In this document: positions 17,717-36,553 of the stretch, piece after piece
How positions within the stretch are numbered: the stretch's first letter is position 1
Layout of the letters: each line of letters starts with the position of its first letter
Assembly: GCA_022563685.1 (NCBI GenBank)
Contig: JADFMY010000001.1
Location: forward strand, 10,707-74,706
Length of the DNA: 64,000 nucleotides
Source: Pseudomonadota bacterium
GTDB taxonomy: Bacteria > Pseudomonadota > Gammaproteobacteria > GCA-001735895
Direction of reading: 5' to 3'
Notes under the pieces: generated by a model
What the model saw: the letters and a program-made list of their open reading frames with translations, nothing else
What the model was told of the DNA's origin: nothing
The model's database searches: none
Program-made: the position numbers and the translations under genes

Positions 17717-20128
17717 ATGCGTATTTCGGCATTTTACCAGGCGGTACTGGTCATCGTAGTTGCTTATCTCATCTTCGATAACGCCTTCCCACCGCTATTA
17801 CCGAAGACGTTGATGATTCAGTACATGATCATTACGGTTGTCGGCGTACTGCTATATTTCTCGTTCGACGACGACCGTTGGGCGGAGTTTTTAGCACCGA
17901 TAAGGTCGGTACTGAGAGACGATGATAAAGGCTTATTGCGCGGATTCTTCCTGCTGGCAATCCCGGGACTGATCGGATGGGTGACTTATGAAGCCATTAA
18001 GCCTACATTAGATTCGCCGATTGAATTACGCCAGGTGCACCCTGCCCCACCGTCAAGCTTCAGGGTATTTAACCAGACTTACAACCTCAGCAAACTGGAA
18101 AACCCGGTACGCGACGAGATCGCCAGTCAATACCAGGAAGATCCTGACGCCGCGATGCAAACCTATACCGACGCAGTCGAAGCTGGCCGCGATGTGTATT
18201 ATCAAAATTGTTTCTACTGTCATGGTGACCTGCTCGATGGACAGGGGCCTTTTGCCGATGGTTTTACCAATCCCCTGCCGATCAATTTCCAGGACGTGGG
18301 TACCATTGCGCAGTTAGAAGAGACTTTTTTATTCTGGCGCATCACCACCGGCGGTCCAGGTTTACCCAGGGAAGGAACGCCGTGGAATTCAGCGATGCCG
18401 GTGTGGCATGAATTTCTCGAAGAGGAAGATGTGTGGAACGTCATCACATTTTTGTACGACTATGTGGGTCAGGTGCCGCGTATCTGGGACCGGGATAAAT
18501 CAAAAATAGCCACTGCCATTAAAGAAGCGCGGGTCAAACAACGTTCGACGATGATGGGGGGCGATCTTTATCAATATCGTTGCGCCGCCTGCCATGGCGT
18601 GGAAGGTCTGGGCGACGGGGTTGCCCCCGAGCGTCTGTATCCCAGGCCACGCGACTTCAGTTTGGGCCTGTTCAAATACAAAACTACGCCGGGCGCTTTG
18701 CCCCCCAGCGATGAAGACCTGTTCAATACCATCAAACACGGTTTGACCGGAACAGGGATGCCCGGCTGGGGCAGAGTGATGCGCGATGACCAGATCGAAA
18801 GCCTGATCCCGGTGCTTAAGGGATTTGACATGACAGCAACCTGGTCTCCGGAAGATGCAGAGGATGAAAACTTCGACGACGAAGGTCGTTACACAAAAAC
18901 TGACTTTATCTCGATTACTGAAACTGAACCGGTTGATGGAATGATCGACTATAGCCCTGATTCCATAGCCAGGGGCAGGGAGGTTTTTAACAAGGCCTGT
19001 AACAAATGCCACGGAGATAGTGGTAGAGGCAATATCACCTCGGGCAAGAAACTCGACGACGACTGGGGTTATCGTATCTGGCCTCGCGATCTGACCAAAG
19101 CCTGGACTTATCGAGTATCTGAGGTAATCGACACGGATACCACCCATGCCAGAACGCAAACCATTCAGAGAATTTACCAGCGCCTGTCGATCGGCATTAC
19201 CGGCACACCGATGCCCGCACACCGCGCAGTTGAGGAAGGCAACAAGGATCCGATCGAGCTTGAGGATCGTTGGCACGTCGCCAATTACGTCTATTCCCTG
19301 CGCGAACAGGCAAATTCATTACCTGGCGAAAGCGACGTCCTGTCGGCAATCAAGTTGGAACAATTGCCTGGGGATGTAAATTCCGAACTGTGGAATCAGG
19401 CGACCCCGGCCACCTTCAGGCTGGTACCGAACATCATCAAAGGCGAGCGCCTTTTCACCCCGTTGTCGGATGCCGTAACGGTACGCGCAGTGTATACCCG
19501 GGATGAGATTTCCTTTCTGCTGGAACTGAATGACCGTACCGACAGTCGTCCCGGTGAAGAAGAGTCCGAAGGCATACAGGATGAAGAGCTGACCCTGCAC
19601 CCGGATGCACTGGCACTACAGTTTCCCAAACAGGATGCGTTCGAAACATCCCCAGTAGTCGTGAAACCCCTGTACCGCCATGGAGATAAAAACCATGCAA
19701 CCACGATCTGGTACTGGAATGCCGGTAGCGTCGAGCCGCCGATTCCGGCCAGCGCAGCGTTAATAGACGCCAATGGACCCGATCAAAAACTGAGGTTTCG
19801 CGAGGCTGGAGATTTGAAAGCCATCGGGGTATGGAACCAGGGCCAATGGAAAGTCATGTTCACACGTCCAAGAAAAGTTCATGATGAGGGTGACCTCAGC
19901 TTCGACGAGGGACGCTTCATCCCGATCTCTTTTGCCAACTGGGACGGCAGCAATGGCGAAGCTGGCTCGAAACATACCCTGACCACCTGGTACTGGCTGA
20001 TATTGCCACCGCAAACAAATTTGACTTATGTCTTAGGTATTCCGCTACTGATGATTATACTGTCTATCATGGCTGGTTTGATAGCGGTGCGATCCCAGCG
20101 AAAACTGTCGAAATCGCGTCATGAGTAA
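17717..20128 (+). CDS. fusion protein: N-terminal TM helices, three cytochrome c domains, an EB_dh/DOMON-like haem-b domain and a C-terminal TM anchor
   Basis: CFYCH, CAACH and CNKCH motifs. The C-terminal ~250 aa (TTIWYWNAGS, GQWKVMFTRPR, SFANWDGSNGEAGSKHTLTTWYWLIL) resemble gamma subunits of type II DMSO-reductase enzymes (EbdC/NxrC-like). The final helix is IPLLMIILSIMAGLIAV. Confidence 0.7.
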   Translation: MRISAFYQAVLVIVVAYLIFDNAFPPLLPKTLMIQYMIITVVGVLLYFSFDDDRWAEFLAPIRSVLRDDDKGLLRGFFLLAIPGLIGWVTYEAIKPTLDSPIELRQVHPAPPSSFRVFNQTYNLSKLENPVRDEIASQYQEDPDAAMQTYTDAVEAGRDVYYQNCFYCHGDLLDGQGPFADGFTNPLPINFQDVGTIAQLEETFLFWRITTGGPGLPREGTPWNSAMPVWHEFLEEEDVWNVITFLYDYVGQVPRIWDRDKSKIATAIKEARVKQRSTMMGGDLYQYRCAACHGVEGLGDGVAPERLYPRPRDFSLGLFKYKTTPGALPPSDEDLFNTIKHGLTGTGMPGWGRVMRDDQIESLIPVLKGFDMTATWSPEDAEDENFDDEGRYTKTDFISITETEPVDGMIDYSPDSIARGREVFNKACNKCHGDSGRGNITSGKKLDDDWGYRIWPRDLTKAWTYRVSEVIDTDTTHARTQTIQRIYQRLSIGITGTPMPAHRAVEEGNKDPIELEDRWHVANYVYSLREQANSLPGESDVLSAIKLEQLPGDVNSELWNQATPATFRLVPNIIKGERLFTPLSDAVTVRAVYTRDEISFLLELNDRTDSRPGEEESEGIQDEELTLHPDALALQFPKQDAFETSPVVVKPLYRHGDKNHATTIWYWNAGSVEPPIPASAALIDANGPDQKLRFREAGDLKAIGVWNQGQWKVMFTRPRKVHDEGDLSFDEGRFIPISFANWDGSNGEAGSKHTLTTWYWLILPPQTNLTYVLGIPLLMIILSIMAGLIAVRSQRKLSKSRHE

Positions 20129-20169
20129 GCGAATTGTATTCCCGGTGTAACTATTGAGCGAGGTTAGAA

Positions 20170-20319
20170 ATGACGAATCACAAGGGTATGGCAGAATTTC
20201 TGCCTTTGAATAGGGCGGTATTAACGGTTTCCGACAGTCGTGCTCGAGCCGAGGCTCCAGTCATGCGGTATCGGAAAAAGTTACCTGTTAAGGGGGCCAG
20301 TCATGAGTTGCTGTGACCA
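20170..20319 (+). pseudogene. moaB: moaB/mog-like N-terminal remnant
   Basis: The 49-codon ORF MTNHKGMAEFLPLNRAVLTVSDSRARAE... resembles the E. coli MoaB N-terminus (TEFIPTRIAILTVSNRRGEE). It then loses similarity and runs out of frame into the moeA start. Confidence 0.4.
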
Positions 20320-21583
20320 GGCAGACTTGATGCCGTACGACCAGGCAATCGCCGAATTGCTGTCAGTAGCGAAACCTATTACAGAATCAGAAATAGTACC
20401 GGTGGCAGGTGCTCTTGGACGCGTGCTGGCTGAAGATGCGGTCTCCAGCCTCGATGTGCCACCAGCGGATAACAGTGCTATGGATGGTTATGCGCTGCGA
20501 TATTCAGACCTCACCAACGCGGGCTTGACCACACAAGGTCGAGTCGTGTTACCGATCAGTCAGCGAATCGCCGCTGGCGTAGTGCCCGAAGCGCTAAACC
20601 CCGGTACTGTTGCCAGAATTTTTACCGGCAGCGAAATCCCCGAGGGGGCAGACACCGTCATCATGCAGGAGCAGTGCCGGGCATTAAACGGTACCGATGG
20701 TGAAGGGAAAGAAAACGGTCAGACGGTTGAACTGCCTGTCGACATAAACCCAGGTGATAACATTCGCCTTAAAGGTCTGGATATCACCGCGGGTTCGGTT
20801 ATATTAAATCGTGGCCACAAATTGCTACCGCAGGATCTGGGTTTGCTGGCTTCCATAGGCCTCGCCGAAGTTAAGGTATATCGACGCTTAAAAGTGGCGA
20901 TCCTCTCGACCGGTGATGAAATCGTCGAACCTGGGCAGGCTTGCCCGGCAGGCCATATTTATAATTCCAACCGTTACACGCTAGCCGGACTAATCGATGC
21001 GATGGGCATGGAGCGAGTGGATATGGGTATAGTACCCGACGATCCTGAAGCAACCGAAGCAGTATTACGACAGGCCGCGGAACTGGCCGACTGTATCATT
21101 ACCACCGGCGGCGTATCGGTGGGGGAAGAAGACCACGTCAAGGCCTGTGTCGAGAAATTGGGTGAATTGCAATTATGGCGCCTGGCAATTAAACCAGGAA
21201 AACCGCTCGCTTTTGGCCAGGTGCTGGATAAACCTTTTTTTGGATTACCCGGAAACCCGGCGGCGGTTTTTGTTACCTTTGCAATGGTAGCTCGACCTTA
21301 TTTATTGAGATTCCAGGGTTGCGAAAATGGCCTCCTGCCCATGACCCTCACGGTTCAGGCAAACTTTAGCCGCAACAGGCCAGGCAAACGCCAGGAATAT
21401 CTGCGCGCGCGTCTGGATATTTCCGAGCGAGGAGTCATGAGCGCCAGCTTACATACCAATCAAAGCAGTGGCGCACTTTCGGCAGCCAGTTGGAGTAACG
21501 GTTTTGCGGTCCTGCCGATTGACCAGCTAATCGAAAACGGCGACAGCGTGAAATTTATTCCCTATAGTGAATTGTTTGCCTAG
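20303..21583 (+). CDS. moeA: molybdopterin molybdenumtransferase MoeA
   Basis: ALGRVLAEDAVSSLDVPPADNSAMDGYALR, ITTGGVSVGEEDHV and KPGKPLAFG are canonical MoeA blocks. The ATG at 20303 with aaggggg upstream is preferred to the track start at 20240. Confidence 0.9.
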   Translation: MSCCDQADLMPYDQAIAELLSVAKPITESEIVPVAGALGRVLAEDAVSSLDVPPADNSAMDGYALRYSDLTNAGLTTQGRVVLPISQRIAAGVVPEALNPGTVARIFTGSEIPEGADTVIMQEQCRALNGTDGEGKENGQTVELPVDINPGDNIRLKGLDITAGSVILNRGHKLLPQDLGLLASIGLAEVKVYRRLKVAILSTGDEIVEPGQACPAGHIYNSNRYTLAGLIDAMGMERVDMGIVPDDPEATEAVLRQAAELADCIITTGGVSVGEEDHVKACVEKLGELQLWRLAIKPGKPLAFGQVLDKPFFGLPGNPAAVFVTFAMVARPYLLRFQGCENGLLPMTLTVQANFSRNRPGKRQEYLRARLDISERGVMSASLHTNQSSGALSAASWSNGFAVLPIDQLIENGDSVKFIPYSELFA

Positions 21584-21607
21584 ATCAGAGGCTCCCTAAA
21601 TAACGAT

Positions 21608-22840
21608 ATGCTCAAGTTGACAGTCCCTGACGAGGCCAACCGTACGGTGCCCCTGTTTCGTTTGGCGTTTCGCCCTTTCTTCCTCGGCGGCGTCTTATTT
21701 TCACTACTGGCACTGAGCCTGTGGGCGGTTTTCTGGATTACGGGATTGGACTGGGTTCCTTATGGTGGCTGGATCTGGTGGCACGCCCACGAAATGCTGT
21801 ATGGATTTGTGGTCGCCATTATTGTCGGTTTCCTGTTAACGGCGGTGCAAAACTGGACCGGGCAGGAGAGTATTACCGGCTGGCCACTGGCGGGCCTGTT
21901 TACACTCTGGTTGTTGCCTCGTGGCTTACTGCTTTACCCGATTGCACCCGTCGAATCGCTGCTTCCCTGGTTGGATCTGGCATTCCTGCCTGTCGTCGCC
22001 TGGGTAATGGGCAGAATTCTTTGGCGCGCTCGACAATTTGTCAATCTTGTTTTTGTGCCGATATTGCTATTGCTGACTATTGCTAATGCTCAAATGCACT
22101 GGGCGGTGGTACAGGGTGATGCCGTGTTATTCAGGGATGCCGCTGAAAGTACCATTTTTATAATTGTGCTTGTAACGGTAGTGATGGGTGGCCGTGTGAT
22201 TCCGTTTTTCACAGCCAGTAGTACGGTCACACCCAGCGTGTTGCCCAACCCGGTGATCGAACTGCTGTCTTTGGGATCGGTCGCGCTGCTGGCTTTGTTG
22301 CATTTATTCAGTCTGATCCAGCATCTATCTTCGCTATTAGTAGCAGGCATATTTTTGGTGGCGGGATTGGGTCATTTGCTACGCTTTTTACGCTGGCGTC
22401 CATGGATTACCTACAAAGAACCCTTGCTTTGGTCGCTACACCTCGCCTATCTGTTTATTGCGCTAGGTTTTATTCTGTGTGCATTGCGTTATGCAGGTTT
22501 AAGCCTGGATGTGTTGAGTAGATTTACAGCTTTGTACCCCACCATTTTGCACAGTTTTACGCTCGGGGGCATGGGTTTGTTGATTCTGGCGATGATGTCC
22601 CGGGTTTCGCTGGGTCACACGGGTCGCCCCCTGGTGGTGAGTCCCTGGGTTAGTTTCAGTTTTCTATGTATTATTGCGGCCTATGTCAGTCGTGTCTGGC
22701 TGCCGTTACTATCGCCCGCCACCAGTCATTACTCAAGCTACCTGCTCAGCATTATTTTTTGGTTGTCTGGTTACGGAATATTCATATTTGTCTACCTGCC
22801 TGTCCTCAGCAAACCACGTGTAGATGGTCAACCGGGTTAA
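21608..22840 (+). CDS. nnrS: NnrS family haem/copper membrane protein
   Basis: FRLAFRPFFLGG...WHAHEMLYGF signature and ~12 TM helices. Confidence 0.85.
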   Translation: MLKLTVPDEANRTVPLFRLAFRPFFLGGVLFSLLALSLWAVFWITGLDWVPYGGWIWWHAHEMLYGFVVAIIVGFLLTAVQNWTGQESITGWPLAGLFTLWLLPRGLLLYPIAPVESLLPWLDLAFLPVVAWVMGRILWRARQFVNLVFVPILLLLTIANAQMHWAVVQGDAVLFRDAAESTIFIIVLVTVVMGGRVIPFFTASSTVTPSVLPNPVIELLSLGSVALLALLHLFSLIQHLSSLLVAGIFLVAGLGHLLRFLRWRPWITYKEPLLWSLHLAYLFIALGFILCALRYAGLSLDVLSRFTALYPTILHSFTLGGMGLLILAMMSRVSLGHTGRPLVVSPWVSFSFLCIIAAYVSRVWLPLLSPATSHYSSYLLSIIFWLSGYGIFIFVYLPVLSKPRVDGQPG

Positions 22841-24022: not shown

Positions 24023-24267
24023 TAGCGATTAAATAAAGCACCGGGGTTCTATAGGGCTAACCGATACTCCATTTATTTGCCCCCGATTCGCTCGCATCGA
24101 GCGCTAACAAGCAACGGCCTGGCAGTCTTCATTGAATGAATCGATCAATTCATCGTTTAAAACTCATACGAATTGAAAGATTTATACACCCGAAACCTCC
24201 ATATTGAGCACCCGGTTTTTCTCATAAGCAATTGATCCAATAGACAAATATAGGATCATGGAAAACT

Positions 24268-24283
24268 TGGCTTAATAAATGCA
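24268..24283 (+). promoter_or_regulatory. weak candidate sigma-54 promoter upstream of the peroxidase/Rieske/Mo cluster
   Basis: TGGCTTAATAAATGCA has correct GG-N10-GC spacing but is otherwise AT-rich. It lies 69 nt upstream of ATG 24352. Confidence 0.25.
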
Positions 24284-24351: not shown

Positions 24352-25479
24352 ATGAGTCCAAAGCTGACCAGGCGTGGCCGACTGATGATAGCAGTATCCG
24401 GGTTGAGTCTTGCATTCGCAGTGTCGACTGGCGCAGTGTCGACGGACCTGGCTGCGGAAATCGGACCGCTTCCCGAGCTAAAAACAGACTTGCTGAAAGC
24501 CGAGCTGGGAAAGAGGCTTTTTTTCGATAAACGAATCTCTGGCGATGCGGGTATTGCCTGCGCGAGCTGCCATCAGCCGGAGCACGGATTCAGTCACCCC
24601 GATGCATTGTCGCCTGGTTATCCGGGTAATAAGCATTTTCGCAATTCACCTACCCTGATCAACGTCGCACACAAAAAAGTATGGAATCACGACGGCCGTC
24701 TTGGCACCAACCTGAACGATGTGACGCGCGGCATGCTCACCGAATCCTACATCATGAACATGGATATGCGCATCATGCAGGAACGCCTGAAGCAAGATCC
24801 TGTTTATGTGCGTATGTTCAAGGAAGCAGGTTATGGTGAACCTTCCAACGGTAGTGTGCGTAAAGCCATTCCTGAATACCTGAAGACACTTACTTCGCGT
24901 GGTGCGCCATTTGACAAGGCTAAGATGTCGCGTTCGGCTAAACGCGGCATGAAGCTGTTTACCGGCAAAGCCGGGTGCATCAGCTGCCATAGCGGCGCCA
25001 ACTTCACCGATGGGCAGGCGCATAACACCGGAGTCCCGGAAAACTGGGACGTATTTCTCGACCCGGCGCGTCACCAGGCGTTCCTCGCCTACGGCCTGTT
25101 TATGGGGGTTGAAAATCTCTTCAGCCTGAAGCGCGACCCGGGCGCCCATGTACAGTCGCATAAGGCAGACGGTTCCGATATGGGCAAGTTCATGACGCCG
25201 ACATTACGCGAGCTCGCCTACACCGCTCCCTACATGCATAACGGCATGATCAAAACACTGGATGAAGTGGTGGAGTTCTACAATCAGGGCGGTGGTCGGG
25301 ATTCGAACAAGAGTGCGTTGATGAAACCGCTGAAGCTGAGCCAGGCCGAAAAGAAAGATCTGGTTGAATTTCTGCAAGCGTTATCTGGCGAAACTCTAAG
25401 CGGCAAGGAGTTTGTGTGGGATCAGCCCTACCCGGCTGAATACGAAGCTATCGCCGACTGGCGCAACGTTCGAAACTAG
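24352..25479 (+). CDS. dihaem cytochrome c peroxidase (CCP/MauG family), IdrP-like by context
   Basis: Signal peptide. CASCHQPEHGF and CISCHSG haem motifs. C-terminal TPTLRELAYTAPYMHNG block. The ATG at 24352 behind ggagg is preferred to the TTG at 24337. Confidence 0.85.
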   Translation: MSPKLTRRGRLMIAVSGLSLAFAVSTGAVSTDLAAEIGPLPELKTDLLKAELGKRLFFDKRISGDAGIACASCHQPEHGFSHPDALSPGYPGNKHFRNSPTLINVAHKKVWNHDGRLGTNLNDVTRGMLTESYIMNMDMRIMQERLKQDPVYVRMFKEAGYGEPSNGSVRKAIPEYLKTLTSRGAPFDKAKMSRSAKRGMKLFTGKAGCISCHSGANFTDGQAHNTGVPENWDVFLDPARHQAFLAYGLFMGVENLFSLKRDPGAHVQSHKADGSDMGKFMTPTLRELAYTAPYMHNGMIKTLDEVVEFYNQGGGRDSNKSALMKPLKLSQAEKKDLVEFLQALSGETLSGKEFVWDQPYPAEYEAIADWRNVRN

Positions 25480-25494
25480 GTTTGGGAGTAGCTA

Positions 25495-26691
25495 ATGAAT
25501 ATATCGATTCAAAAAACGACTGTTGCTGGTATCGCGCTCGCCGTCTCGATGGCCTACGGGTCTGCTTACGCCGAATTGACCGTCGTTTCTACCGGAACAG
25601 GCGAGGTTAATCCGCCTTTGGCGCCGCTACCGAAAATGCCGGTTCCACCGGATAACAAGATTACACCGGAAAAGGTCGAATTGGGCAAGTTCCTGTTCTT
25701 CGACCCTCGCCTCGGTGGCGATGCCTCCATTTCATGCGCGAGTTGTCACGACCCGGGTCAGGGTTGGGCCTGGACTGAAGATTTTTCGCGTGGCTATCCG
25801 GGCACCGTGCACTGGCGTAATAGTCAGACCATCATCAATTCACAGTTTCTGCAGAAACAGTTCTGGGCTGGCTCGGCTTCATCGGGCGAAAAACAGGCTC
25901 GATCGGCAGCAAGGGGTGGTGTCGCCGGTAATGGCGAAGCCGATTTGATGGAAGCGCGCCTGGCCCTGATACCCGAGTATAAAAAACGCTTCAACGAAGT
26001 ATTCGGTGATGAATGGCCATTGATCAAGAATGCCTGGCGCGCTATCGCCACGTTCGAGAGAACCTTAATCGCCGATAACACCCCGCTGGATGCCTATCTC
26101 GGGGGCGATAAATCGGCTTTGAGCGATGCGCAATTGCGCGGTAAAAAACTGTTTGAAGCCAAGGCAAACTGCATCGAGTGCCATAATGGCCCGCTTGCTA
26201 CCGACGAACGTTATTACAACATCGGGGTTCCCACTGCAGCGCGTTGGGACGATGATGGCATGGCGCAAATTACTTTCCGCTTTGAACAGTATGCCAAGGG
26301 TACAACCGAGGAAATGTACCGCACTATCAAGGACGATGCCGGTTTTTACTACCGCAGTAAAAACAAGTGGGATAAGGGTAAGTTCCGTACACCGCCGCTC
26401 AGATACATCTCCTATACCCCACCGTATATGCATAACGGCGCTTTCTACACGCTCGAAGAAGTGGTCGATTTCTACAATCGCGGCGGAATCGACGAAGAAG
26501 GCAATAGCACTTCGTTCCCTGAAACCAAGAGCGCTTTGATTAAACCATTAAATCTGAGTGATGCAGAAAAAGAAGATCTGCTGGCTTTCCTGGAGGCGTT
26601 CTCGGGTGATGAAATCGAAATCGAAAAACCTGAATTGCCTGATTATGCACCTTTGTTTACCAGGGCCGAATTATTGGAGGCTATAAAATGA
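25495..26691 (+). CDS. second dihaem cytochrome c peroxidase (CCP/MauG family), IdrP-like by context
   Basis: Signal peptide. CASCHDPGQGW and CIECHNG motifs. TPPLRYISYTPPYMHNG. Confidence 0.85.
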   Translation: MNISIQKTTVAGIALAVSMAYGSAYAELTVVSTGTGEVNPPLAPLPKMPVPPDNKITPEKVELGKFLFFDPRLGGDASISCASCHDPGQGWAWTEDFSRGYPGTVHWRNSQTIINSQFLQKQFWAGSASSGEKQARSAARGGVAGNGEADLMEARLALIPEYKKRFNEVFGDEWPLIKNAWRAIATFERTLIADNTPLDAYLGGDKSALSDAQLRGKKLFEAKANCIECHNGPLATDERYYNIGVPTAARWDDDGMAQITFRFEQYAKGTTEEMYRTIKDDAGFYYRSKNKWDKGKFRTPPLRYISYTPPYMHNGAFYTLEEVVDFYNRGGIDEEGNSTSFPETKSALIKPLNLSDAEKEDLLAFLEAFSGDEIEIEKPELPDYAPLFTRAELLEAIK

Positions 26692-27269
26692 GCACAGAAT
26701 TGAAAGTGGGAAAAGAGAAATCGGCGGCGCATGGCAAGTGCATGATGACCCGACGCGGCTTCCTCATGACCAGTGGTGCCGCAACCGCGATGGGTACGGT
26801 GGGTATATCGCTATTCCCGGGTACGGTTAACGCATTCTCATCGACTGCTCAGGTGGTTGGTTATCCACGTAAGAAAATCGCCAGCCTGAGGCAGTTGAAG
26901 GATAACCAGCCGTTTGATTTTAGCTACCCGGATGAGGTTGGAAACAACCAGTGCATGCTGGTCAAGATGGGCGGTGCCCAGGCCGGTGGTGGTGTTGGTA
27001 AAAAGAAAGACATAGTTGCTTTCAGTTACCTCTGCACGCACCAGGGTGGTCCGCTGCAGGGCAGCTATAAAGTAGTGGGCGACCAACGTGTACTGGGGCA
27101 GTGCCCATTTCACCTGTCAACCTTTGACCTGCGCCGACACGGCATCATCGTCTCCGGTCAGGCTTATGAAAGCCTGCCGCAGATTTTGCTGGAGATCGAT
27201 GGCGACGACGTCTACGCCGTGGGTATGTTAGGGCTGGTTTTCGGCCGCAATACAAATTTGAAATCCTAG
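26688..27269 (+). CDS. Tat-exported Rieske [2Fe-2S] small subunit of the AioB/IdrB type
   Basis: Twin-arginine motif TRRGFLMTSGAA. Rieske ligands CTH (CTHQGGPL) and CPFH (CPFHLSTFD). ATGA overlap with the preceding gene. Confidence 0.85.
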   Translation: MSTELKVGKEKSAAHGKCMMTRRGFLMTSGAATAMGTVGISLFPGTVNAFSSTAQVVGYPRKKIASLRQLKDNQPFDFSYPDEVGNNQCMLVKMGGAQAGGGVGKKKDIVAFSYLCTHQGGPLQGSYKVVGDQRVLGQCPFHLSTFDLRRHGIIVSGQAYESLPQILLEIDGDDVYAVGMLGLVFGRNTNLKS

Positions 27270-27281
27270 GAGACACAACAC

Positions 27282-29978
27282 ATGTCTACTAATTATTATC
27301 TACCCGAAGACAGCGCACCCCTGCCACCTAAGCATGCGGAAGTGCTGACAACAGCCTGCGACTACTGCATCGTCGCCTGTGGCTATAAAGTCTATCGCTG
27401 GCGACTCGGTAGCGGCAATGGTGGTACCAAAGCATCGGAAAATGCATTTGGCATCGATTTTCCATCGGCTCCCCTGCAGGATTGGGTCGCGCCCGCGCAA
27501 CACAATGTGGTGATGCACAATGGTGTGCCTCATAACATCGTCATCACCCCCGACAAGGACACCACGGTGGTTAATACCCTGGGCGATTCCAGCATGCGGG
27601 GTGGCCTGATCGCGCAAAAGTGTTACAACCCGAAGACCCCGACTCGTGATCGGCTAACCACACCGCTGGTGCGATTATTCGGTACCTTGCAGCCGGTGAC
27701 CTGGGAGTTTGCACTCGATATTGCCGCCGAGGTCGCCAAACACGTCATTAAAAACCATGGCGCCAATGCTTATTCGGTGAAAACCTACTCATATCAGTAT
27801 GTCGAAAATACCTATGCGATAACCAAGTATGCGCGTCGTCATATCAATACCGCAGCTTTTACCTTCCACGATACGCCTTCGGATGTCACCTCTACTCCGG
27901 GATTTCGTGACGCCGGATTCGATAACTTCGGCCCCAGTTATGATGACTGGGGATCGGCCGAAACCCTGATGATCTGCGGCACCGACCCATACGAAACTAA
28001 AACTATCCTGTTCACCCGGTTCATCATGCCCGCGATTCAGGGCGGTCAAAAAGTCATTATGCTCAATCCACGCGAGACCGCAGGCGTGGCTTATGTGAAA
28101 AAAATGGGTGGCTTGCACATTCAGCTTTATCCAGGTACCGATCTACTGGTGGTTGGCGCTATTGCGCGGGTGATTATGGAAAATGGTTGGGAAGATAAGG
28201 ACTGGATCAAGAAATGGGTCAACAGCAAGTGGGAATCAAGCTCTGGTTTTGGCCAGGGTACGCGTAATACACCCTGGCAATGGCGTACGACCTGGGGCAA
28301 GTTCCAGACCGATGGTTTTGAAGACTACAAGAAGTGGGTGATGGCTCAGAAAGAATACGAGCCCGCCTATGCAGCAAAGAAAGCCGGTATCCCGGTCGAA
28401 CAAATTTACCGGGCGGCTGAAATGATGGCCAGGCCTGTCGGCGGCAAGCGGCCGAAGACTTCGATCGGCATCGAAAAAGGGTTCTACTGGTCCAACAATA
28501 CCGGCAATACCGAGGCAATCGCTTCACTGGCAACCATCTGCGGCGCCGGTGGGCGGCCTGGACAGGTAATTGGCCGTTTTGGTGGTCACCAGCGTGGCGG
28601 CACTAGCGGTGGGAAATACCCCCGTAACAAGTCACCCGAAAAAGTACCTGGCCGCCGCAGACGCGCACTGGATACCGATCGCTGGTTAGTCAGTGGTCAT
28701 ACTCGTTTCGCGCACGTCATCGGCACTACATGGATTCAATCCATGTGCGGTTCACAGAGTCTGGAAAAGGCATTTCATGAACTGGTGACAGCCAACCCGC
28801 ATCAGGTACGTGATTTCGACAAACAGGGCATCATCGACACCTTGAAAAAACGCGCCGATTCCGGTGGCATGGTGGTGATCAATCAGGATATTTACCTACG
28901 CGATCCGATCGGCGCCAAGTTTGCCGATATCGTATTCCCGGCTGCTACCTGGGGCGAAGAAGACTTTGTGCGGGCCAACGGCGAACGCCGGTTGCGCCTG
29001 TTTCAAAAATTCTACGATCCACCGGGTAATTCAAAACCAGACTGGTGGATTATTGCGCAACTGGCCAAACGCATGGGATTCGACGGGTTCGACTGGAAAA
29101 ACTCCAACGAAGTTTGCGAAGAATCTTCCCGTTTCAGCCGTGGCAACCGTAAGGCCTACCACATGGTCAAGGTTGCAGCGCATAAGGAAGGCAAGACCCT
29201 GCACGAAAAACTCAGGGAATTAGGTACCGATGGGATTCAGGGTCCGACCTTTTATAACTATGAAACCGGTGAGTTAATAGGCACCAAACGCCTGCACGAC
29301 ACGACCCTGACCGAAGCCGATCTGATCAAGATGGGCCTCGCTGACGGGGCTCAGGCTGGCAACCTGGTGAACAAGAAACTGACCCACTTTAACAGCCAGA
29401 CCGGCAAGGTGAATATCAACAAGCACCCCTGGAGCCTGTTCTCCGATTTCTGGGAGTGGTTATCACCCAAAGGTGACGAGCTGTGGTATTCCACTGGTCG
29501 TATCAACGAGATCTGGCAATCCGGTTTCGACGATGTCGAAAGGCGTCCTTATTGTACGCAACGCTGGCCCGAGAACTGGGTGGAAATTCATCCCGACGAT
29601 GCCGCTAAACGTGGTATCGAGTCCGGTGACCAGGTCATGCTCTATTCCGACCGGGTTGCGAGACACAAGGATACCATTCTGGGTGTCAAGGGAGATGACT
29701 TCCAGTTCTCCAGTTTACTTAAAAATGGTCATATCGAACTGAGCAAGGCAGCGGTAACCGCGGTTGCTATAGTTACGCCAGCGATTAAGCAGGGCATGAT
29801 GTACGCGAATATGATCGATATGCGCCAGCCATCAAACGCTCTCCAACCCGCAGTGGTAGACTGGATCAGTGGTAACTACAACTACAAAATGGGCGTAGCC
29901 AGAGTCAAGAAACTGGGCGAATCCAAGTATAAGAAGGAATTCCGTAGCTTTTCCTTCGCACCACGGAATATCGTTTAA
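27282..29978 (+). CDS. AioA/IdrA-clade molybdopterin oxidoreductase large subunit (arsenite oxidase-like; iodate reductase-like by context)
   Basis: 898 aa. The N-terminal [3Fe-4S] motif CDYCIVACGYKVY (C-x2-C-x3-C) resembles AioA CHFCIVGCGYHVY. There is no Tat signal of its own, so it would hitch-hike on the Rieske subunit as AioA does. It follows the Rieske gene as in aioBA. Confidence 0.85.
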   Translation: MSTNYYLPEDSAPLPPKHAEVLTTACDYCIVACGYKVYRWRLGSGNGGTKASENAFGIDFPSAPLQDWVAPAQHNVVMHNGVPHNIVITPDKDTTVVNTLGDSSMRGGLIAQKCYNPKTPTRDRLTTPLVRLFGTLQPVTWEFALDIAAEVAKHVIKNHGANAYSVKTYSYQYVENTYAITKYARRHINTAAFTFHDTPSDVTSTPGFRDAGFDNFGPSYDDWGSAETLMICGTDPYETKTILFTRFIMPAIQGGQKVIMLNPRETAGVAYVKKMGGLHIQLYPGTDLLVVGAIARVIMENGWEDKDWIKKWVNSKWESSSGFGQGTRNTPWQWRTTWGKFQTDGFEDYKKWVMAQKEYEPAYAAKKAGIPVEQIYRAAEMMARPVGGKRPKTSIGIEKGFYWSNNTGNTEAIASLATICGAGGRPGQVIGRFGGHQRGGTSGGKYPRNKSPEKVPGRRRRALDTDRWLVSGHTRFAHVIGTTWIQSMCGSQSLEKAFHELVTANPHQVRDFDKQGIIDTLKKRADSGGMVVINQDIYLRDPIGAKFADIVFPAATWGEEDFVRANGERRLRLFQKFYDPPGNSKPDWWIIAQLAKRMGFDGFDWKNSNEVCEESSRFSRGNRKAYHMVKVAAHKEGKTLHEKLRELGTDGIQGPTFYNYETGELIGTKRLHDTTLTEADLIKMGLADGAQAGNLVNKKLTHFNSQTGKVNINKHPWSLFSDFWEWLSPKGDELWYSTGRINEIWQSGFDDVERRPYCTQRWPENWVEIHPDDAAKRGIESGDQVMLYSDRVARHKDTILGVKGDDFQFSSLLKNGHIELSKAAVTAVAIVTPAIKQGMMYANMIDMRQPSNALQPAVVDWISGNYNYKMGVARVKKLGESKYKKEFRSFSFAPRNIV

Positions 29979-30007
29979 ACCGAAGGCCAAAAAGGATGGC
30001 CTGTTAA

Positions 30008-30049
30008 AAGAGTGTGATGGGACTCTCCCCCTCGTTCCGTCACACTCTT
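30008..30049 (+). terminator. hairpin downstream of the Mo subunit gene (possible terminator)
   Basis: aagagtgtga ... tcacactctt forms a 10-bp stem with a 22-nt loop, followed by a short T run. A smaller hairpin (aggcca/tggcct) lies at 29984-30002. Confidence 0.35.
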
Positions 30050-30075
30050 TAAGCCTGGTCAATTTTAAATTGCCG

Positions 30076-30097
30076 TTGACAAGGTCAACCTTGTCAA
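30076..30097. promoter_or_regulatory. perfect 10-2-10 palindrome upstream of modA (candidate operator)
   Basis: TTGACAAGGT-CA-ACCTTGTCAA lies 89 nt upstream of the modA start. A TAGAAT -10-like hexamer sits at 30119-30124. Confidence 0.35.
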
Positions 30098-30185
30098 TAC
30101 AAGTCGCAGAAATTCGCGTAGAATGACCGGGTCGATTTTGGATTCGAATTAACATGAATTCAATGATTATCCCTACTCTATAAAG

Positions 30186-30959
30186 ATGATTTGCAGACTG
30201 ATAACGATCTTTGTGTTAGCCACTGCATGGATATGCCCTGTCCAGGCAATGTCTTCGGCCTCCCCCCTGGTAGCAACGGCATCAGGAATGCAATTTGCTA
30301 TCAGGGAAATTGCGCTTAAGTTTTATGAAGACACAGGTATTAAAGTCCGAATCACCCTTGGTTCTTCGGGAAACCTGTATCGACAGATCAAAAATAATGC
30401 ACCGTTTGATTTGTTTATATCCGCAGATAACTCACTCACAAAGAAACTTGAATCGGAGAAACTTACCCTGAACGACAGCGTAGTCATCGCTAAAGGCCGG
30501 TTGGTAGTATTCGCACCCAACGGTTCGCCATTAATCCCCGATGAACATCTTGGCGGGTTGAAAATCGCACTCTCTGAAGGCCAGATAACAAGATTTGCGA
30601 TTGCCAGTCCAAAGCATGCTCCCTATGGCCAAAGAGCAAAAGAGGCACTTCAATCGGCACAGCTATGGGAAGCGGTTAAGGATAAATTGGTGATTGGCGA
30701 GAATGTCTCTCAGGCGGCGCAATTCGTTGTTTCGGGTGCGGCACAAGGGGGTATAATTGCGCAATCCCTTGTTGTCGTGGATGAAATTTCACATCGGGGT
30801 CAGTATGCCCTACTACCCGAGTCCTGGCACCAACCTATACTTCATAGTATGGTGCTCCTAAAAAATGCAGACGAGGCCGCTTTAAAGTTATTCGAATATA
30901 TTAGGTCAATTAAAGGGCAGGATATACTATCACTCCATGGGTTTAACCCTTCTTACTAA
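30186..30959 (+). CDS. modA: molybdate ABC transporter substrate-binding protein
   Basis: Signal peptide. LGSSGNLYRQIKNNAPFDLFISAD matches the ModA block (SG.L..QI..GAP.D.F.SAD). Confidence 0.9.
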   Translation: MICRLITIFVLATAWICPVQAMSSASPLVATASGMQFAIREIALKFYEDTGIKVRITLGSSGNLYRQIKNNAPFDLFISADNSLTKKLESEKLTLNDSVVIAKGRLVVFAPNGSPLIPDEHLGGLKIALSEGQITRFAIASPKHAPYGQRAKEALQSAQLWEAVKDKLVIGENVSQAAQFVVSGAAQGGIIAQSLVVVDEISHRGQYALLPESWHQPILHSMVLLKNADEAALKLFEYIRSIKGQDILSLHGFNPSY

Positions 30960-30975
30960 TTTACCAGGCAAATAG

Positions 30976-31647
30976 ATGGATTGGGGAGCATTCAGGCTTT
31001 CACTACAGTTGGCCTTTTTCACCGTAATATTGTTACTACCGATCGCCGTCCTGATGGCTCGATGGCTGGTAACGCTTCCCCCAGCACCTAAGAGCATTAT
31101 TGAGTCATTACTGACCTTACCTCTCATCCTGCCCCCAACGGTACTGGGGTTTTTTCTTCTTATAACACTGAGCGACTCTTCTTCGATTGGACGAATATGG
31201 CGTTCTATCTTCGACGAATCTCTTGTCTTTACATTTGAAGGTTTGTTAGTCGCATCCATTATTGTCAATATCCCATTTGCTGTTCAACCGGCGCTCAGGG
31301 CATTTGAGGCGATAGGCAGTGATATGCGTGAGGCTGCAGAAACATGCGGTATGAGTTCGTGGCGATCATTCAGGCGCATTGAATTCCCCCTCGCCTGGCC
31401 AGGAATTCTCACCGGAGGGGTGCTCACATTCGCCCATACACTAGGCGAGTTTGGAGTTGTTTTAATGGTAGGGGGAAATATTCCTGGTGAAACACGCACT
31501 GTTGCAATTGCAATTTATGACCAGGTTCAGAGTTTTGATAATGCTTCGGCAGCAACCATGTCAGCCATCTTACTCGCGATATCACTCCTCGCAATCAGCA
31601 TCACCTTTCTATTAACGCGAAAAGCCCTCAGCAGGAACAGGTTGTAA
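30976..31647 (+). CDS. modB: molybdate ABC transporter permease
   Basis: FPLAWPGILTGGVLTFAHTLGEFGVVLMVGGNIPGETRT is the canonical ModB EAA-loop region. Confidence 0.9.
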   Translation: MDWGAFRLSLQLAFFTVILLLPIAVLMARWLVTLPPAPKSIIESLLTLPLILPPTVLGFFLLITLSDSSSIGRIWRSIFDESLVFTFEGLLVASIIVNIPFAVQPALRAFEAIGSDMREAAETCGMSSWRSFRRIEFPLAWPGILTGGVLTFAHTLGEFGVVLMVGGNIPGETRTVAIAIYDQVQSFDNASAATMSAILLAISLLAISITFLLTRKALSRNRL

Positions 31648-31648
31648 A

Positions 31649-32770
31649 TTGTCAGACCCAAATAGTTTAGAAGTCACGATACGACAAACCGACCCGGTTT
31701 TCCTGGATGTCCAATTTAAGGTCAGGGGATCCGAACTACTCGCCCTTGTTGGGCCTTCCGGGGGCGGTAAATCGACAATTTTAAGAACTATCGCAGGGTT
31801 CCAAAAGCCGATTTCCGGGAAGATAACTATCGGTGACAAGGTGTGGTTCAATAGTCAACGGAAAGTATCCGTGGCACCTCGACATCGTCGATTAGGTATG
31901 GTTTTTCAATCCTATGCTCTGTTTCCCCACTTGACAGCCATCGAAAATGTGATGGAATCGATTTCAAACCAACGGGCTACCAACAAAATTAATATGGCCA
32001 ATGAGTACCTGGCCCGAGTCAATCTCAAAGGTCTCGGTGACCGGCGCCCGGATCAGCTATCGGGAGGGCAACGGCAACGTGTCGCGGTCGCTAGAGCCCT
32101 TGCCAGGGAACCTGATGTGCTTTTGATGGACGAGCCCTTTTCTGCAGTTGATCGTGTCACCCGGACCCGGTTGCAACGGGAACTGATCGAACTACGATCA
32201 CATTTATCTATTCCAATAATCTTCGTTACGCATGACATGGAAGAGGCTGCTCGCCTGGCTGATCGGGTTGCCGTGCTCCATGAAGGGAGGATTTTACAAA
32301 CAGATTCGTATGAAACCCTGTCTAAGCGTCCTGTCAATACTACCGTGGCAAAGCTGGTTGGTATTCGAAATATATTTAACGGCAAAGTTTCGAAAATCAC
32401 CGATAACGAAGGAAGACTTCGTTTGCAATGGGGAAACTTTGTGCTGGATACTCCTTATCGAACGGGTTTTAGTGCGAACCAGTCGGTCACCTGGTGTATT
32501 CCATCAGATGGAATCGTGGTCCACCGGAGGAACAGACCTTCGCGAGGGGAGCACGAAAATCCGGTCTCCGGCATTGTTAGCGAACTGTTCCAATTTGGCC
32601 AGACAACCGAACTCATCATCGATGTCAGTGACCCAGACGCGCATCCACTACACTGTTCGATACCAACCCATGTAGCAAAGCGCAATGATATAAGCATTGG
32701 TGTAAATATTGGTGTCTCCCTCAAAGCTGATATGATTCATATCATGGCTGCTGAAAACGCGTGTTCCTGA
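31649..32770 (+). CDS. modC: molybdate ABC transporter ATP-binding protein with a C-terminal TOBE/Mop domain
   Basis: Walker A GPSGGGKST, signature LSGGQRQRV, Walker B LLMDEP. TTG start 2 nt after the modB stop. Confidence 0.9.
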   Translation: MSDPNSLEVTIRQTDPVFLDVQFKVRGSELLALVGPSGGGKSTILRTIAGFQKPISGKITIGDKVWFNSQRKVSVAPRHRRLGMVFQSYALFPHLTAIENVMESISNQRATNKINMANEYLARVNLKGLGDRRPDQLSGGQRQRVAVARALAREPDVLLMDEPFSAVDRVTRTRLQRELIELRSHLSIPIIFVTHDMEEAARLADRVAVLHEGRILQTDSYETLSKRPVNTTVAKLVGIRNIFNGKVSKITDNEGRLRLQWGNFVLDTPYRTGFSANQSVTWCIPSDGIVVHRRNRPSRGEHENPVSGIVSELFQFGQTTELIIDVSDPDAHPLHCSIPTHVAKRNDISIGVNIGVSLKADMIHIMAAENACS

Positions 32771-32843: not shown

Positions 32844-35219
32844 TCAAGTAGTCAGTGCAGAAAAAACCATAGGCAACCTTTCTGGCAATCGTTCGACATT
32901 CTCAACAATCGAATAGTTGTTTTCTCCAAATATGCGTGCTACATATCGATCAGCGTCTGGATCTAGCGTGAGGCAATAGGTATAAACCCCTTGCATGGCC
33001 AATTCCTCAACCGCTTTTTGGGCATCGTGTCGAAGATATTGCGGATCGCGTTCATCAATATCGGCTGGTTCGCCATCGGTCACTAACAACACGAGGCGTT
33101 TAGTGGCATTTTGTTCCTTTAAATGGAAACCTGCGTGCCGCAGAGCTGCTCCCATGCGCGTTGATAATCCGCCATTCATGCCGGCCAGTCGAGATTTGGC
33201 TTCATCATCGTATCTCTGGTTAAAGTCTTTAAACCGATAATATTGCACATCATGCCGGCCATTCGATGCAAAGCCATGCACCGCAAAAGTATCACCAATG
33301 GCATCGATTGCCCAGGACAATAATCCAGTTGCCTCACGTGTCAAACTGAGGATGCTGGGCGCCTCGGCATAACCTTCGTCTCCTTCGGTTATATCACCAA
33401 TTTTTTCGTTGGTTGATTCCGATAAATCCATTAGAACCAGGATAGCGAGATCTCGATTGTGGCGAGTGATACGTATATTGATTCGCGGGTCAGGCATAAC
33501 ACCGCGACGAATATCGATCATGGCGCGAACTGCCGCATTCAAATCCAGCTCCTCACCTTCTTCATATCCTCGGCGTCGCACTATACCCTGTGGCTGCAGG
33601 GCATCGATCAGGTGTTTAATTCGAGCCGCAATCGGTTTATGCCGGGTTAGTATTTCATCCATCACATCGGGATTACCTTTAGGCTGGCGGTGCTCGATCA
33701 CCGTGGCCCAATCGGGCCGTGCTAATTGCACCCGATAATCCCATTCATCGTAATGATAGGGTTGCGAGACAGGTTCCTTACCCTCGAGCTCATTGATGGT
33801 GCACCCCTCCTGGTCAAGCCAAAATGGCGTCGATAGTGTCCAGATTTCCTGCGCATCATCGCCGGCCAGCTCACAATCAAGGGTATTGACCATTTCCATT
33901 AGACCAACGCTACGCCGCAACTGTTGCTGACTATCTGGTTGATAATCAAGGCCCTCCTGGACAAACATGTTTTCGGAAAAAGCCCAGCAATAACGATTGT
34001 CATCGCGGTACGGGATCGGCATATTTTCCAGTATTCGAACCGATGGAATCGCTGCGTATTCAACAATACGGTTATAAAACTCGATACCAAATTGCCATGA
34101 AATACGATTATCGTGAGGATTCTGGGCAAGCCTGGTTCTAAAATCGGCGGCAAATTGATGGATAAATTCAATCTCAGCATTGTATTTTTCATCCAGAAGT
34201 GAATAGGCCAGGTTAACCATTAAATCCATGGATTCATGTAGCTCGGTGTCTTCATTTGAAGATTTATATGCGATGAAAAAACGAATCCAGAGCTTTTTCA
34301 ATCCCGGAAAGTCCTGTATCGCGAGATACTCAACGCGCGCATCTTCGAATAGTCCAATAAATAGCATTTGCGCCTGGGATAATTGTTCCGCACTCATAGA
34401 CTGTTTGGTATAGACCATGTGCGCTGCACAGTGAGCCGCCGATGCACGATATATCTCAAGTCCCTGAATGTCATGAAACGAATCAAATGCGTCCGGAAGA
34501 TATATCTGAAAACTTTCAATATAAGGACGCAAGCCTTCTCTATTCTCATAATCACCCGACGTAGGCCGCATAAAGAAGGACCGACCCCAGAGGGCGCGTA
34601 AATAGAAATTCAGCTTTCTTTGATTATTGATAAACAAGGTTCCGCGCCGCTCTTTTTGCAATACGGAGCGTGAAGACTCTGTATTCAGCGCAAAGTAAGC
34701 CATTTGATTGTCGAGGTCACGCGCGTGTGCCTGCGCGCCCCATAAGGCCCAACGCCTTAAGCCACCCAAAGTCAGCTTACTGAGCAATTCATCGAGATTT
34801 TCCATCATCGGCCGCAAGCCGCGCGGAGCTTTTCCCGCAAGATTGTGAAGCAATTTGAGATAGCCGCGGACGACTTCTGCATCGCCAAGCCGACGAGCAG
34901 CTAAAGACATTTCAGACAGTATCAGGATAATGACGCTACCCGAGGTGTGCGACGACAACTTCATCATCGCATGAACAATATCTGGCACTATATCTTCGCC
35001 AATTTCTCTGGCGACGCCTGGCATCTCCTGGACATAGGTGAGCACCAAATCCCTGTTATTGCCCAGCGAGTAGATCGCACGCATGCCCTCTAAATAATTT
35101 TTTAACCCCTGTGGTGACATCACGCGAGCTGCCTCGCGATATGAAGATTCTAGCGTTTGACGATCTGTGGTATCGTCTTCATCAAGGAAATTGAGGTATT
35201 CTGAAAAATTGATCGGCAT
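32844..35219 (-). CDS. cbbO: RuBisCO activase adaptor CbbO (von Willebrand factor A domain)
   Basis: ~790 aa with a C-terminal VWA/MIDAS block (LVLMDLSESTNE...LVLLVTDGEPADID). It follows cbbQ. The ATG at 35219 (MPINFSEY) is preferred because the track start overlaps cbbQ. Confidence 0.85.
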   Translation of the reverse strand: MPINFSEYLNFLDEDDTTDRQTLESSYREAARVMSPQGLKNYLEGMRAIYSLGNNRDLVLTYVQEMPGVAREIGEDIVPDIVHAMMKLSSHTSGSVIILILSEMSLAARRLGDAEVVRGYLKLLHNLAGKAPRGLRPMMENLDELLSKLTLGGLRRWALWGAQAHARDLDNQMAYFALNTESSRSVLQKERRGTLFINNQRKLNFYLRALWGRSFFMRPTSGDYENREGLRPYIESFQIYLPDAFDSFHDIQGLEIYRASAAHCAAHMVYTKQSMSAEQLSQAQMLFIGLFEDARVEYLAIQDFPGLKKLWIRFFIAYKSSNEDTELHESMDLMVNLAYSLLDEKYNAEIEFIHQFAADFRTRLAQNPHDNRISWQFGIEFYNRIVEYAAIPSVRILENMPIPYRDDNRYCWAFSENMFVQEGLDYQPDSQQQLRRSVGLMEMVNTLDCELAGDDAQEIWTLSTPFWLDQEGCTINELEGKEPVSQPYHYDEWDYRVQLARPDWATVIEHRQPKGNPDVMDEILTRHKPIAARIKHLIDALQPQGIVRRRGYEEGEELDLNAAVRAMIDIRRGVMPDPRINIRITRHNRDLAILVLMDLSESTNEKIGDITEGDEGYAEAPSILSLTREATGLLSWAIDAIGDTFAVHGFASNGRHDVQYYRFKDFNQRYDDEAKSRLAGMNGGLSTRMGAALRHAGFHLKEQNATKRLVLLVTDGEPADIDERDPQYLRHDAQKAVEELAMQGVYTYCLTLDPDADRYVARIFGENNYSIVENVERLPERLPMVFSALTT

Positions 35220-35241
35220 GGCGGTACCAGCGATTGACTCA

Positions 35242-36048: not shown

Positions 36049-36153
36049 ATGAAAATCCTTTCATTAGCACTGTTTGGTAGATCGACTTCGAGGAAAAAAT
36101 GATGCTTTTGTTCCTGCAATAGAAACAAAAGCATCCAATCACACAGAGGAGAT

Positions 36154-36510: not shown

Positions 36511-36553
36511 GATTAATTCCTCAACAAATCTCAAAACTTCATCTAGTGGCAGC

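Follow-up and report, generated by a model that had tools for sequence, protein, structure and literature searches.

Which oxyanion is the substrate of a molybdoenzyme that resembles arsenite oxidase (AioBA) and is encoded together with two cytochrome c peroxidases? The question is raised by a cluster of four genes at positions 24352-29978 of a 64,000-nucleotide stretch of DNA (the window) from contig JADFMY010000001.1 of a gammaproteobacterial genome assembly (GCA_022563685.1). Our analysis indicated that these genes very probably constitute a single operon, idrP2-idrP1-idrB-idrA, encoding a periplasmic iodate reductase (Idr) that belongs to a marine clade of the catalytic subunit IdrA. Iodate reduction, which yields iodide, controls the speciation of iodine in the sea and, via volatile iodine, ozone chemistry. 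An initial annotation, made from the sequence alone, had favoured an Idr-type enzyme over a classical arsenite oxidase, and the phylogenetic tree, the replacement of Glu203 by Ser, synteny, the Idr motifs and the placement of promoter and terminator signals all agreed with that proposal.

All four genes lie on the forward strand and are tightly packed, at the positions and with the identities originally assigned to them (two CCP/MauG-family peroxidases, a Tat-signal Rieske subunit and an 898-residue subunit containing CDYCIVAC), as was evident from Pfam and TIGR domain matches and from motifs. The first gene, idrP2 (24352..25479), encodes a di-haem cytochrome c peroxidase (CCP) of 375 amino acids and 41.5 kDa (Pfam CCP_MauG, 5e-38), and the second, idrP1 (25495..26691), encodes another of 398 amino acids and 44.2 kDa (Pfam CCP_MauG, 1e-41). 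These are followed by idrB (26688..27269), encoding a Rieske [2Fe-2S] small subunit of 193 amino acids exported by twin-arginine translocation (Tat), and idrA (27282..29978), encoding the molybdopterin catalytic subunit of 898 amino acids and 100.8 kDa with a [3Fe-4S] cluster. The names idrP2 and idrP1 are positional and follow the accession order of Azoarcus sp. DN11 (PMC10149662), which implies transcription in the order P2-P1-B-A. The spacing between P2 and P1, P1 and B, and B and A is 15, −4 and 12 nt, respectively, and a Shine-Dalgarno sequence precedes every one of the four genes; for idrP2, the longest open reading frame starts from TTG at 24337, and the gene caller and the Shine-Dalgarno sequence point to ATG at 24352. 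The GC content over idr is 0.52 compared to 0.46-0.47 in the immediate flanks, a modest rise that is not diagnostic of a genomic island, and no tRNA gene that might mark such an island was found in the 64-kb window.

Analysis of the catalytic subunit revealed a protein related to, and distinct from, the arsenite oxidase large subunit AioA. IdrA contains the Pfam domains Rieske_3 ([3Fe-4S]), Molybdopterin and Molydop_binding, with CDYCIVAC at residues 26-33 and the motif CX2CX3CX70S running from C26 to S104, and its N-terminus (MSTNYYLPEDS) has neither a twin-arginine nor a hydrophobic leader, i.e. no signal peptide of its own. It scored 391 bits against the NCBIfam AioA equivalog TIGR02693 (cutoff 359 bits), with the match covering only model positions 3-663 of 806. 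Its best matches among solved structures were AioA of NT-26 (270 bits) and of Alcaligenes faecalis (237 bits), and HMMER aligned it to AioA structures at E = 5e-79. Identity to the AioA proteins of NT-26, Ralstonia and Thermus was 29-31%, compared to 49% for IdrA of Azonexus hydrophilus NCP973 and 69-91% for hundreds of marine sequences, of which the closest named relatives were from uncultured Thiotrichaceae-type metagenome-assembled genomes (MAGs; 81-91%). IdrAs of GTDB SAR324 genomes showed 74-76% identity to the window protein, and a search seeded with an alphaproteobacterial clade member retrieved proteins of Roseovarius, Roseibium album, Pseudovibrio and Rhodobacteraceae at 77-79%. Plasmid-borne relatives were distributed bimodally, with three Idr-like proteins at 49-72% and about 57 AioA proteins at 26-30%.

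To place these proteins phylogenetically, we used a neighbour-joining tree of 46 sequences (788 trimmed columns, 200 bootstraps), rooted with Nap/Fdh-like proteins. In this tree IdrA was not nested inside canonical AioA and was placed outside the AioA clade, the AioA proteins of NT-26, Ralstonia and Thermus forming a separate group with 85.5% bootstrap support. The window protein grouped with sequences of Vibrio, Moritella, Photobacterium, Marinobacter, Thiomargarita, Sedimenticola, Ca. Thiodiazotropha, tubeworm symbionts, SAR324 and one Rhodospirillales genome in a marine clade with 100% bootstrap support, a Mariprofundaceae representative (P0121) being counted in. This clade was sister to the IdrAs of Azonexus and Thiothrix (84% bootstrap). 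In these comparisons the reference from a validated isolate is the Azonexus NCP973 plasmid alone, as Denitromonas, Pseudomonas SCT and DN11 were outside the best 80 genome matches.

The four arsenite-binding residues of AioA were located by residue counts in the HMMER alignment with A. faecalis AioA, in which the chain index equals the published numbering and the anchors are RIH-NRPAYNS-E for His195 and Glu203 and VR-MGG-H for Arg419 and His423. These residues, which the initial annotation had named as the ones to check, correspond to H196, S204, R432 and H436 of the window protein; thus three of the four are kept and Glu203 is not. At the Glu203 position, Ser is nearly invariant across the marine clade, and Asp is found in Azonexus IdrA. 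The surrounding active-site loop reads HNRPAYNSE in canonical AioA, HDKCSATND in the IdrAs of Azonexus and Thiothrix, and HDTP[SA][DN]V[TS]S in the marine clade, where it is uniform in about 230 retrieved sequences; the window version is HDTPSDVTS (residues 196-204, DNA ~27867-27893). The usual Mo-ligand position is Ala199 in AioA and varies between Ser and Ala in the marine clade. Because it varies, this residue is probably not a Mo ligand, which would leave Mo with no protein ligand.

Despite their different loops, the two Idr clades share features that set them apart from AioA. At 15 invariant positions common to both clades the residue differs from the invariant AioA residue, and both have insertions at 317-323 and 791-821 as well as a GGxxPxxxSPEKxPGRRR insertion. 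Compared to the AioBA proteins of A. faecalis (1G8K) and Rhizobium NT-26 (4AAY), which likewise combine a Tat-exported Rieske protein with a [3Fe-4S]/Mo-bis(molybdopterin guanine dinucleotide) subunit, the window IdrA is about 70 residues longer, with insertions at 317-323, 441-462, 676-700 and 791-821, and has HQRGG in place of the AioA motif HQEG. The length of about 825 amino acids given in the initial annotation for A. faecalis AioA was correct (825 in PDB 1g8k). As a side observation, two clades that are credited with one substrate have very different substrate-funnel residues.

The remaining subunits showed the same pattern of relatedness. IdrB scored 118 bits against TIGR02694 (cutoff 95.65), matched the Tat signal model TIGR01409, and contains the Tat motif TRRGFL and the Rieske motif C116-T-H-X20-C-P-F-H, in which the spacer has 20 residues compared to the 18 reported for DN11; its identity is 54% to Azonexus IdrB and 40% to NT-26 AioB. 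Both peroxidases have signal peptides with a hydrophobic leader and combine the CCP_MauG domain with the two c-type haem sites by which membership of the family is recognized, CXXCH being located at residues 70 and 209 in the idrP2 product and at residues 81 and 226 in the idrP1 product (CASCH and CISCH in one peroxidase, CASCH and CIECH in the other). The two proteins scored well under the cutoffs of the MauG and MbnH equivalogs, and the closest solved structures to the idrP1 product were the bacterial CCPs 1nml, 3o5c and 1iqc. Both also contain PYMHNG, which we take to be the Met-ligand motif of bacterial CCPs. The idrP2 product is 45% identical to the first Azonexus peroxidase, its orthologue, and the idrP1 product is 55% identical to the second one and 37% identical to its paralogue in the window.

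Comparison with other genomes indicated that the gene order is a stable property of this enzyme family. At least 474 species-level genomes hold a relative, and the best 80 of these, all at least 72% identical, were analyzed by tblastn of the window proteins against the genome loci. The order CCP-CCP-Rieske-Mo was found in about 70 of the 80 loci, representing all those with enough upstream DNA, and also on the plasmid of Azonexus NCP973, a strain that respires iodate and upregulates idrABP1P2 (PMC13455634). The Idr clade has been defined operationally through this conserved idrABP1P2 synteny, which is absent from AioA loci (PMC8692401); consistent with this, the AioA loci of NT-26, Thermus, Ralstonia and Cytobacillus contained aioXSR, ars or pst genes and no peroxidase genes. 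Every Idr motif published for DN11, namely CX2CX3CX70S, the Tat and Rieske motifs, and two CX2CH per peroxidase together with signal peptides (PMC10149662), was present in the window proteins. The Idr systems of Pseudomonas sp. SCT, Denitromonas iodatirespirans IR-12, Azoarcus sp. DN11 and Azonexus NCP973 also resemble the window in gene order and sizes, in an IdrA lacking a signal peptide, in a σ54-type promoter element and in the 15 signature residues. They differ in that genes for a σ54-dependent regulator and a sensor kinase adjoin idr in DN11, Azonexus and Thiothrix and not in the window, and in that Azonexus and Thiothrix have a cytochrome c or moaA gene directly downstream, neither of which is present at that place in the window. 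In contrast, the window enzyme itself showed no difference from the marine-clade Idr of the Roseovarius azorensis/Roseobacter group, SAR324 and alphaproteobacterial MAGs from oxygen minimum zones (OMZ), which have the same synteny and an identical loop at 69-91% IdrA identity; Idr of this type also occurs in Vibrio, Moritella, Photobacterium, Sedimenticola and Thiomargarita, RuBisCO-bearing sulfur oxidisers included. Among the compared genomes, Sedimenticola hydrogenitrophicus SB48 (L075) apparently has two idr clusters (~7000-12700 and ~19500-22700), a second peroxidase pair and second idrB beginning about 7 kb downstream of the first idrA, and in strain SN1189 of the same species (L076, L081) idrA is located on two different contigs.

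Signals for transcription were found at both ends of the gene set. A putative σ54-type −24/−12 promoter element, TGGCTTAATAAATGCA, is located on the forward strand at 24268..24283, 69 nt before the first start codon. In 30 of 71 loci the corresponding pattern, TGGC-N8-TGC[AT], was located 45-133 nt ahead of the first peroxidase gene, although only about 2.4 occurrences were expected by chance, and these loci include the Azonexus cluster, which is flanked by a σ54 activator gene. Inside the operon, scans for σ70 promoter and terminator consensus sequences gave only chance-level matches. Right after the idrA stop codon, two stem-loops on the forward strand (29984..30050) likely mark the transcript end as a presumptive terminator; the RNA of 29970-30190 folded with a minimum free energy of −75.5 kcal/mol (z = −6.5 compared to shuffles), including a 17-bp stem at 30007-30050 with no canonical U-tract. 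Because a promoter element precedes idrP2, signals inside the operon are at chance level and structured RNA follows idrA, the peroxidase genes are most likely co-transcribed with idrBA.

Genes for two σ54 activators are present in the window, at 1125-2537 and 53045-54445. The former, a σ54-dependent response regulator on the reverse strand, and its partner, a PAS histidine kinase (2656-5592, reverse strand), both recognized by domain matches, are the better candidates for regulating idr, as about 22 loci, in Vibrio, Photobacterium, Moritella, Marinomonas, Motiliproteus and others (Vibrionaceae and Oceanospirillales-type bacteria), have response-regulator orthologues (48-58% identity) and the kinase no more than 10 kb from idr. 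The other activator belongs to an AioXSR-like trio (50686-54445) with 43, 29 and 41% identity to NT-26 AioX, AioS and AioR, respectively. The initial annotation had reported no adjacent aioXSR, which was correct for the immediate flanks of idr and incorrect for the window as a whole, since this trio lies about 20 kb downstream of idr, next to another molybdoenzyme. We rejected the trio as the idr regulator because its X gene was never linked to idr in 80 loci, and here it adjoins the second Mo-enzyme operon, which is preceded by a σ54-type element of its own. A tentative activator site was found about 120 nt upstream of the −24 element, where a near-palindrome, GAATCGATCAATTC, lies at 24138..24151. 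With up to two mismatches allowed, only two copies were present in 64 kb, GAATTGATCAATTG at 14391-14404 and GAATCGATCAATTC at 24138-24151, both upstream of σ54-type elements, in the divergent promoter region of a block of genes encoding a cytochrome bd-like protein (described below) and before idr. This common near-palindrome hints that idr and the bd-like block are co-regulated, and a degenerate copy is present at the equivalent place in two other loci (L089/L090). The palindrome GAATYGATCAATTS was rejected as a conserved activator site, being absent upstream of idr in 69 other loci, and is at best a genome-specific hint.

Experiments in other organisms bear on the function of the marine clade. 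In R. azorensis, the top protein in the iodate-reducing activity band was an IdrA homologue, and 0.1 µM iodate induced idrA (PMC11445184). A 2026 study placed IdrAs of OMZ MAGs in a clade distinct from that of the isolates and found that idrABP1P2 of SAR324 and alphaproteobacterial MAGs expressed in Escherichia coli gave iodate reduction above the empty vector (PMC13455634). IdrA of a congener, Roseovarius sp. P0398, shows 69% identity to that of the window, with the same loop. That the marine clade is functionally an iodate reductase appears an indirect but reasonable conclusion from this comparison.

Several points weigh against assigning iodate reduction to the window enzyme. The link of the marine clade to experiment is through congeners (Roseovarius sp. 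P0398 and GTDB SAR324 MAGs) rather than the exact published sequences, and the marine-clade experiments appear to lie outside the gammaproteobacterial thiotroph subclade. About 28% of the iodate was reduced even by E. coli carrying the empty vector (PMC13455634), and iodate respiration did not support growth of the aerobic Roseobacter strains (PMC11445184). The tree was built by neighbour joining rather than maximum likelihood. The regulators proposed for idr are 19 kb upstream of it, and conservation of the putative activator site does not extend to the 69 other idr loci. Finally, the window protein is only 49% identical to the validated IdrA of an iodate-respiring isolate, its loop HDTPSDVTS is unlike the HDKCSATND of the isolates' clade at seven of nine positions, and the two Idr clades differ at 67 clade-invariant positions. 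These last differences, together with the modest margin over a vector control that reduced iodate too, are also what one would expect if the marine clade acted on another or a broader range of substrates (another halogen or chalcogen oxyanion), with iodate reduction as a side activity. We regard this as quite unlikely, since the R. azorensis activity band yielded an IdrA homologue and iodate at 0.1 µM was inducing (PMC11445184), the peroxidase pair and synteny are kept between the clades, the 15 signature residues are common with the isolates' clade, and the neighbouring genes point to no alternative substrate.

That the cluster encodes a classical arsenite oxidase, as automated annotation says, seems extremely improbable. 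TIGR02693 and TIGR02694 both score above their cutoffs, homologues are named 'arsenate reductase (azurin) large subunit' in databases, His195, Arg419 and His423 are conserved, and an AioXSR-like trio does exist in the window. Yet IdrA falls outside the AioA clade at 29-31% identity, Glu203 is replaced by Ser, and the operon contains two peroxidase genes, which are absent from AioA loci (PMC8692401); these three failed AioBA features outweigh the model scores, which account for the database misnaming. Moreover, gene calls and family searches of the neighbourhood found no ars genes near the cluster, as had been observed initially, and the AioX-like gene adjoins a different molybdoenzyme here and was never idr-linked in the 80 other loci. 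A more serious alternative, though still a doubtful one, concerns physiology rather than substrate, namely that iodate reduction is a non-respiratory electron sink or a detoxification under oxygen limitation and not an energy-conserving lithoautotrophic respiration. Three idr-bearing marine aerobic Alphaproteobacteria reduced iodate only in static, low-O2 cultures and showed no anaerobic growth on iodate (PMC11445184), and a congeneric Roseovarius IdrA falls within the marine clade of the window protein. The operon also has no quinol dehydrogenase of its own, and stress- or hypoxia-type genes, such as nnrS and that for a HIG_1_N/twin-helix protein, are among its neighbours. On the other hand, isolates of the sister clade use this same set of genes for energy conservation (PMC8692401, PMC13455634), and OMZ MAGs with marine-clade idr have been proposed as dissimilatory reducers; the sequence offers no feature that distinguishes a sink from respiration.

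For the favored assignment, a periplasmic iodate reductase, the published Idr models suggest the following mechanism. As IdrA lacks a signal peptide, it would most likely be exported in complex with IdrB, which bears the Tat signal. Electrons would pass from the periplasmic cytochrome c pool to the Rieske centre, the [3Fe-4S] cluster and the Mo centre, the reverse of the direction in arsenite oxidase. The Mo centre would reduce IO3− to HIO with H2O2 as a possible by-product, which the two peroxidases would consume with cytochrome c, and HIO would yield iodide by disproportionation or, in a sulfidic niche, by chemical reduction. Transcription would probably start from the σ54 promoter before idrP2, probably under the control of the response regulator and PAS kinase at 1125-5592. 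In a host with form I RuBisCO and the Calvin-Benson-Bassham (CBB) cycle, iodate could be an electron acceptor or an electron sink for a lithoautotroph.

The window idr is an ordinary member of the known idrABP1P2 cluster, of a subtype common in marine bacteria including sulfur-oxidising autotrophs. A 2021 catalogue of marine gammaproteobacterial idr carriers includes the sulfur oxidisers Sedimenticola thiotaurini and Thiomargarita nelsonii (PMC8692401 supplement), and the 2026 paper discusses sulfide-oxidising, cbbLS-bearing idr carriers (PMC13455634). Given this literature link between idr, sulfur oxidation and autotrophy and the number of species-level genomes with a relative, the window is therefore not novel; it adds one uncultured, probably sulfur-oxidising autotrophic gammaproteobacterium to the likely iodate reducers, as the literature already says for related lineages. 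Its comparison with AioA has a more general consequence. Marine IdrA scores just over the AioA equivalog cutoff, the names 'arsenate reductase (azurin) large subunit' and 'arsenite oxidase large subunit' are widespread, and even IdrA of Azonexus NCP973, a proven iodate respirer, bears an arsenic-enzyme name; such systematic misannotation means that annotation-based surveys of arsenic cycling over-count arsenite oxidases. In addition, the sharp loop difference between the Idr clades provides a concrete target for mutagenesis, and the conserved σ54 element with its candidate regulator pair provides a handle on regulation.

Upstream of idr, the window contains a two-armed block of genes (1125-20128). 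Its forward arm consists of genes for a CydA-like membrane protein (14929-16839), for a cytochrome c (16839-17714) and for a fusion of a multihaem cytochrome c with an EB_dh haem-b domain (17717-20128). The reverse-strand arm encodes the σ54 response regulator, the PAS kinase, a FAD amine-oxidase-like protein, a radical-SAM/SPASM/PCP_red protein, a Usp/PCP_red protein, a 254-residue protein and an 808-residue HEAT-repeat protein. Copies of the block with 70-80% identity occur in thiotroph MAGs, some next to idr and others not, and σ54-type elements precede both arms, at 14216 on the reverse strand and 14564 on the forward strand. In about 20 thiotroph loci, the CydA-like/cytochrome c/EB_dh operon is the immediate upstream neighbour of idr. 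Contexts sampled from the CydA-like side nevertheless identified it as an independent module: the forward arm was always paired with divergent HEAT-repeat, Usp/PCP_red, radical-SAM/SPASM and FAD amine-oxidase genes and a PAS kinase, an arrangement identical to that of 1125-20128 in the window, and three of four such contexts had the whole block and no idr within 10 kb. The CydA-like protein aligned to bd oxidase subunit I across the first four helices only and had no detectable quinol-site homology, fitting the quinol-site-lacking OR-N/OR-C bd-like families reported by Murali et al. (bioRxiv 10.1101/2021.01.16.426971). A reductase fed by cytochrome c is therefore a more likely role for it than that of a quinol dehydrogenase serving Idr. 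We rejected the bd-like operon (14929-20128) as a dedicated quinol dehydrogenase or accessory of Idr on both of these grounds, the contexts lacking idr and the missing quinol-site homology.

In thiotrophs the regulator pair at 1125-5592 belongs also to the bd-like block, and one may speculate that thiotroph idr is an arm, together with this block, of a σ54 low-oxygen/oxidant regulon under that pair, through which a RuBisCO-bearing sulfur oxidiser respires iodate. We consider this unlikely as it stands. In such a regulon the bd-like reductase, fed by the multihaem cytochrome c/EB_dh protein, would scavenge O2 or reactive by-products and so shield an O2-sensitive Idr. If true, it would amount to genuine lithoautotrophic respiration of iodate through a periplasmic module dedicated to electron transfer, so far shown by no isolate.

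The neighbouring genes named in the initial annotation (moeA, modABC, nnrS, a periplasmic rhodanese and a cbb cluster) were all recovered by gene calls and family searches. Upstream of idr are moeA, encoding the molybdopterin molybdotransferase for cofactor supply (20240..21583, forward strand; NF007960, 417 bits), nnrS, a gene on the opposite strand for a rhodanese with a signal peptide, and the gene for the small HIG_1_N/twin-helix protein. Downstream is modABC, encoding a molybdate ABC transporter (30186..32770, forward strand; TIGR01256 and TIGR02141 above cutoffs), and 74 nt past modC begins a complete form I RuBisCO/CBB set on the reverse strand, comprising cbbO, cbbQ, cbbS, cbbL, class II fba, prk and fbp (32844-42146), with a divergent LysR-type regulator gene (41214-42146). 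The linkage of moeA to idr was not conserved in other idr loci, and the direct idr-mod-cbb adjacency was seen in none of the 80 other loci, so that direct adjacency of modABC, moeA and cbb to idr is confined to this genome, unlike other marine-clade loci. Between the idrA hairpins and modA, at 30075-30096, lies a perfect 22-nt palindrome, TTGACAAGGTCAACCTTGTCAA, which may act as an operator through which modABC responds to molybdate and does not resemble the E. coli ModE site.

Beyond the cbb set, a second molybdoenzyme operon on the reverse strand, within 43087-54445, encodes an NrfH/NapC-like multihaem cytochrome, an Fe-S subunit, an 840-residue Mo subunit and a TorD-like chaperone. The best match of the Mo subunit was PhsA, below threshold. 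This operon has a σ54-type element at 48831, and an IS110 transposase gene (49048-50310) lies between it and the AioXSR-like trio.

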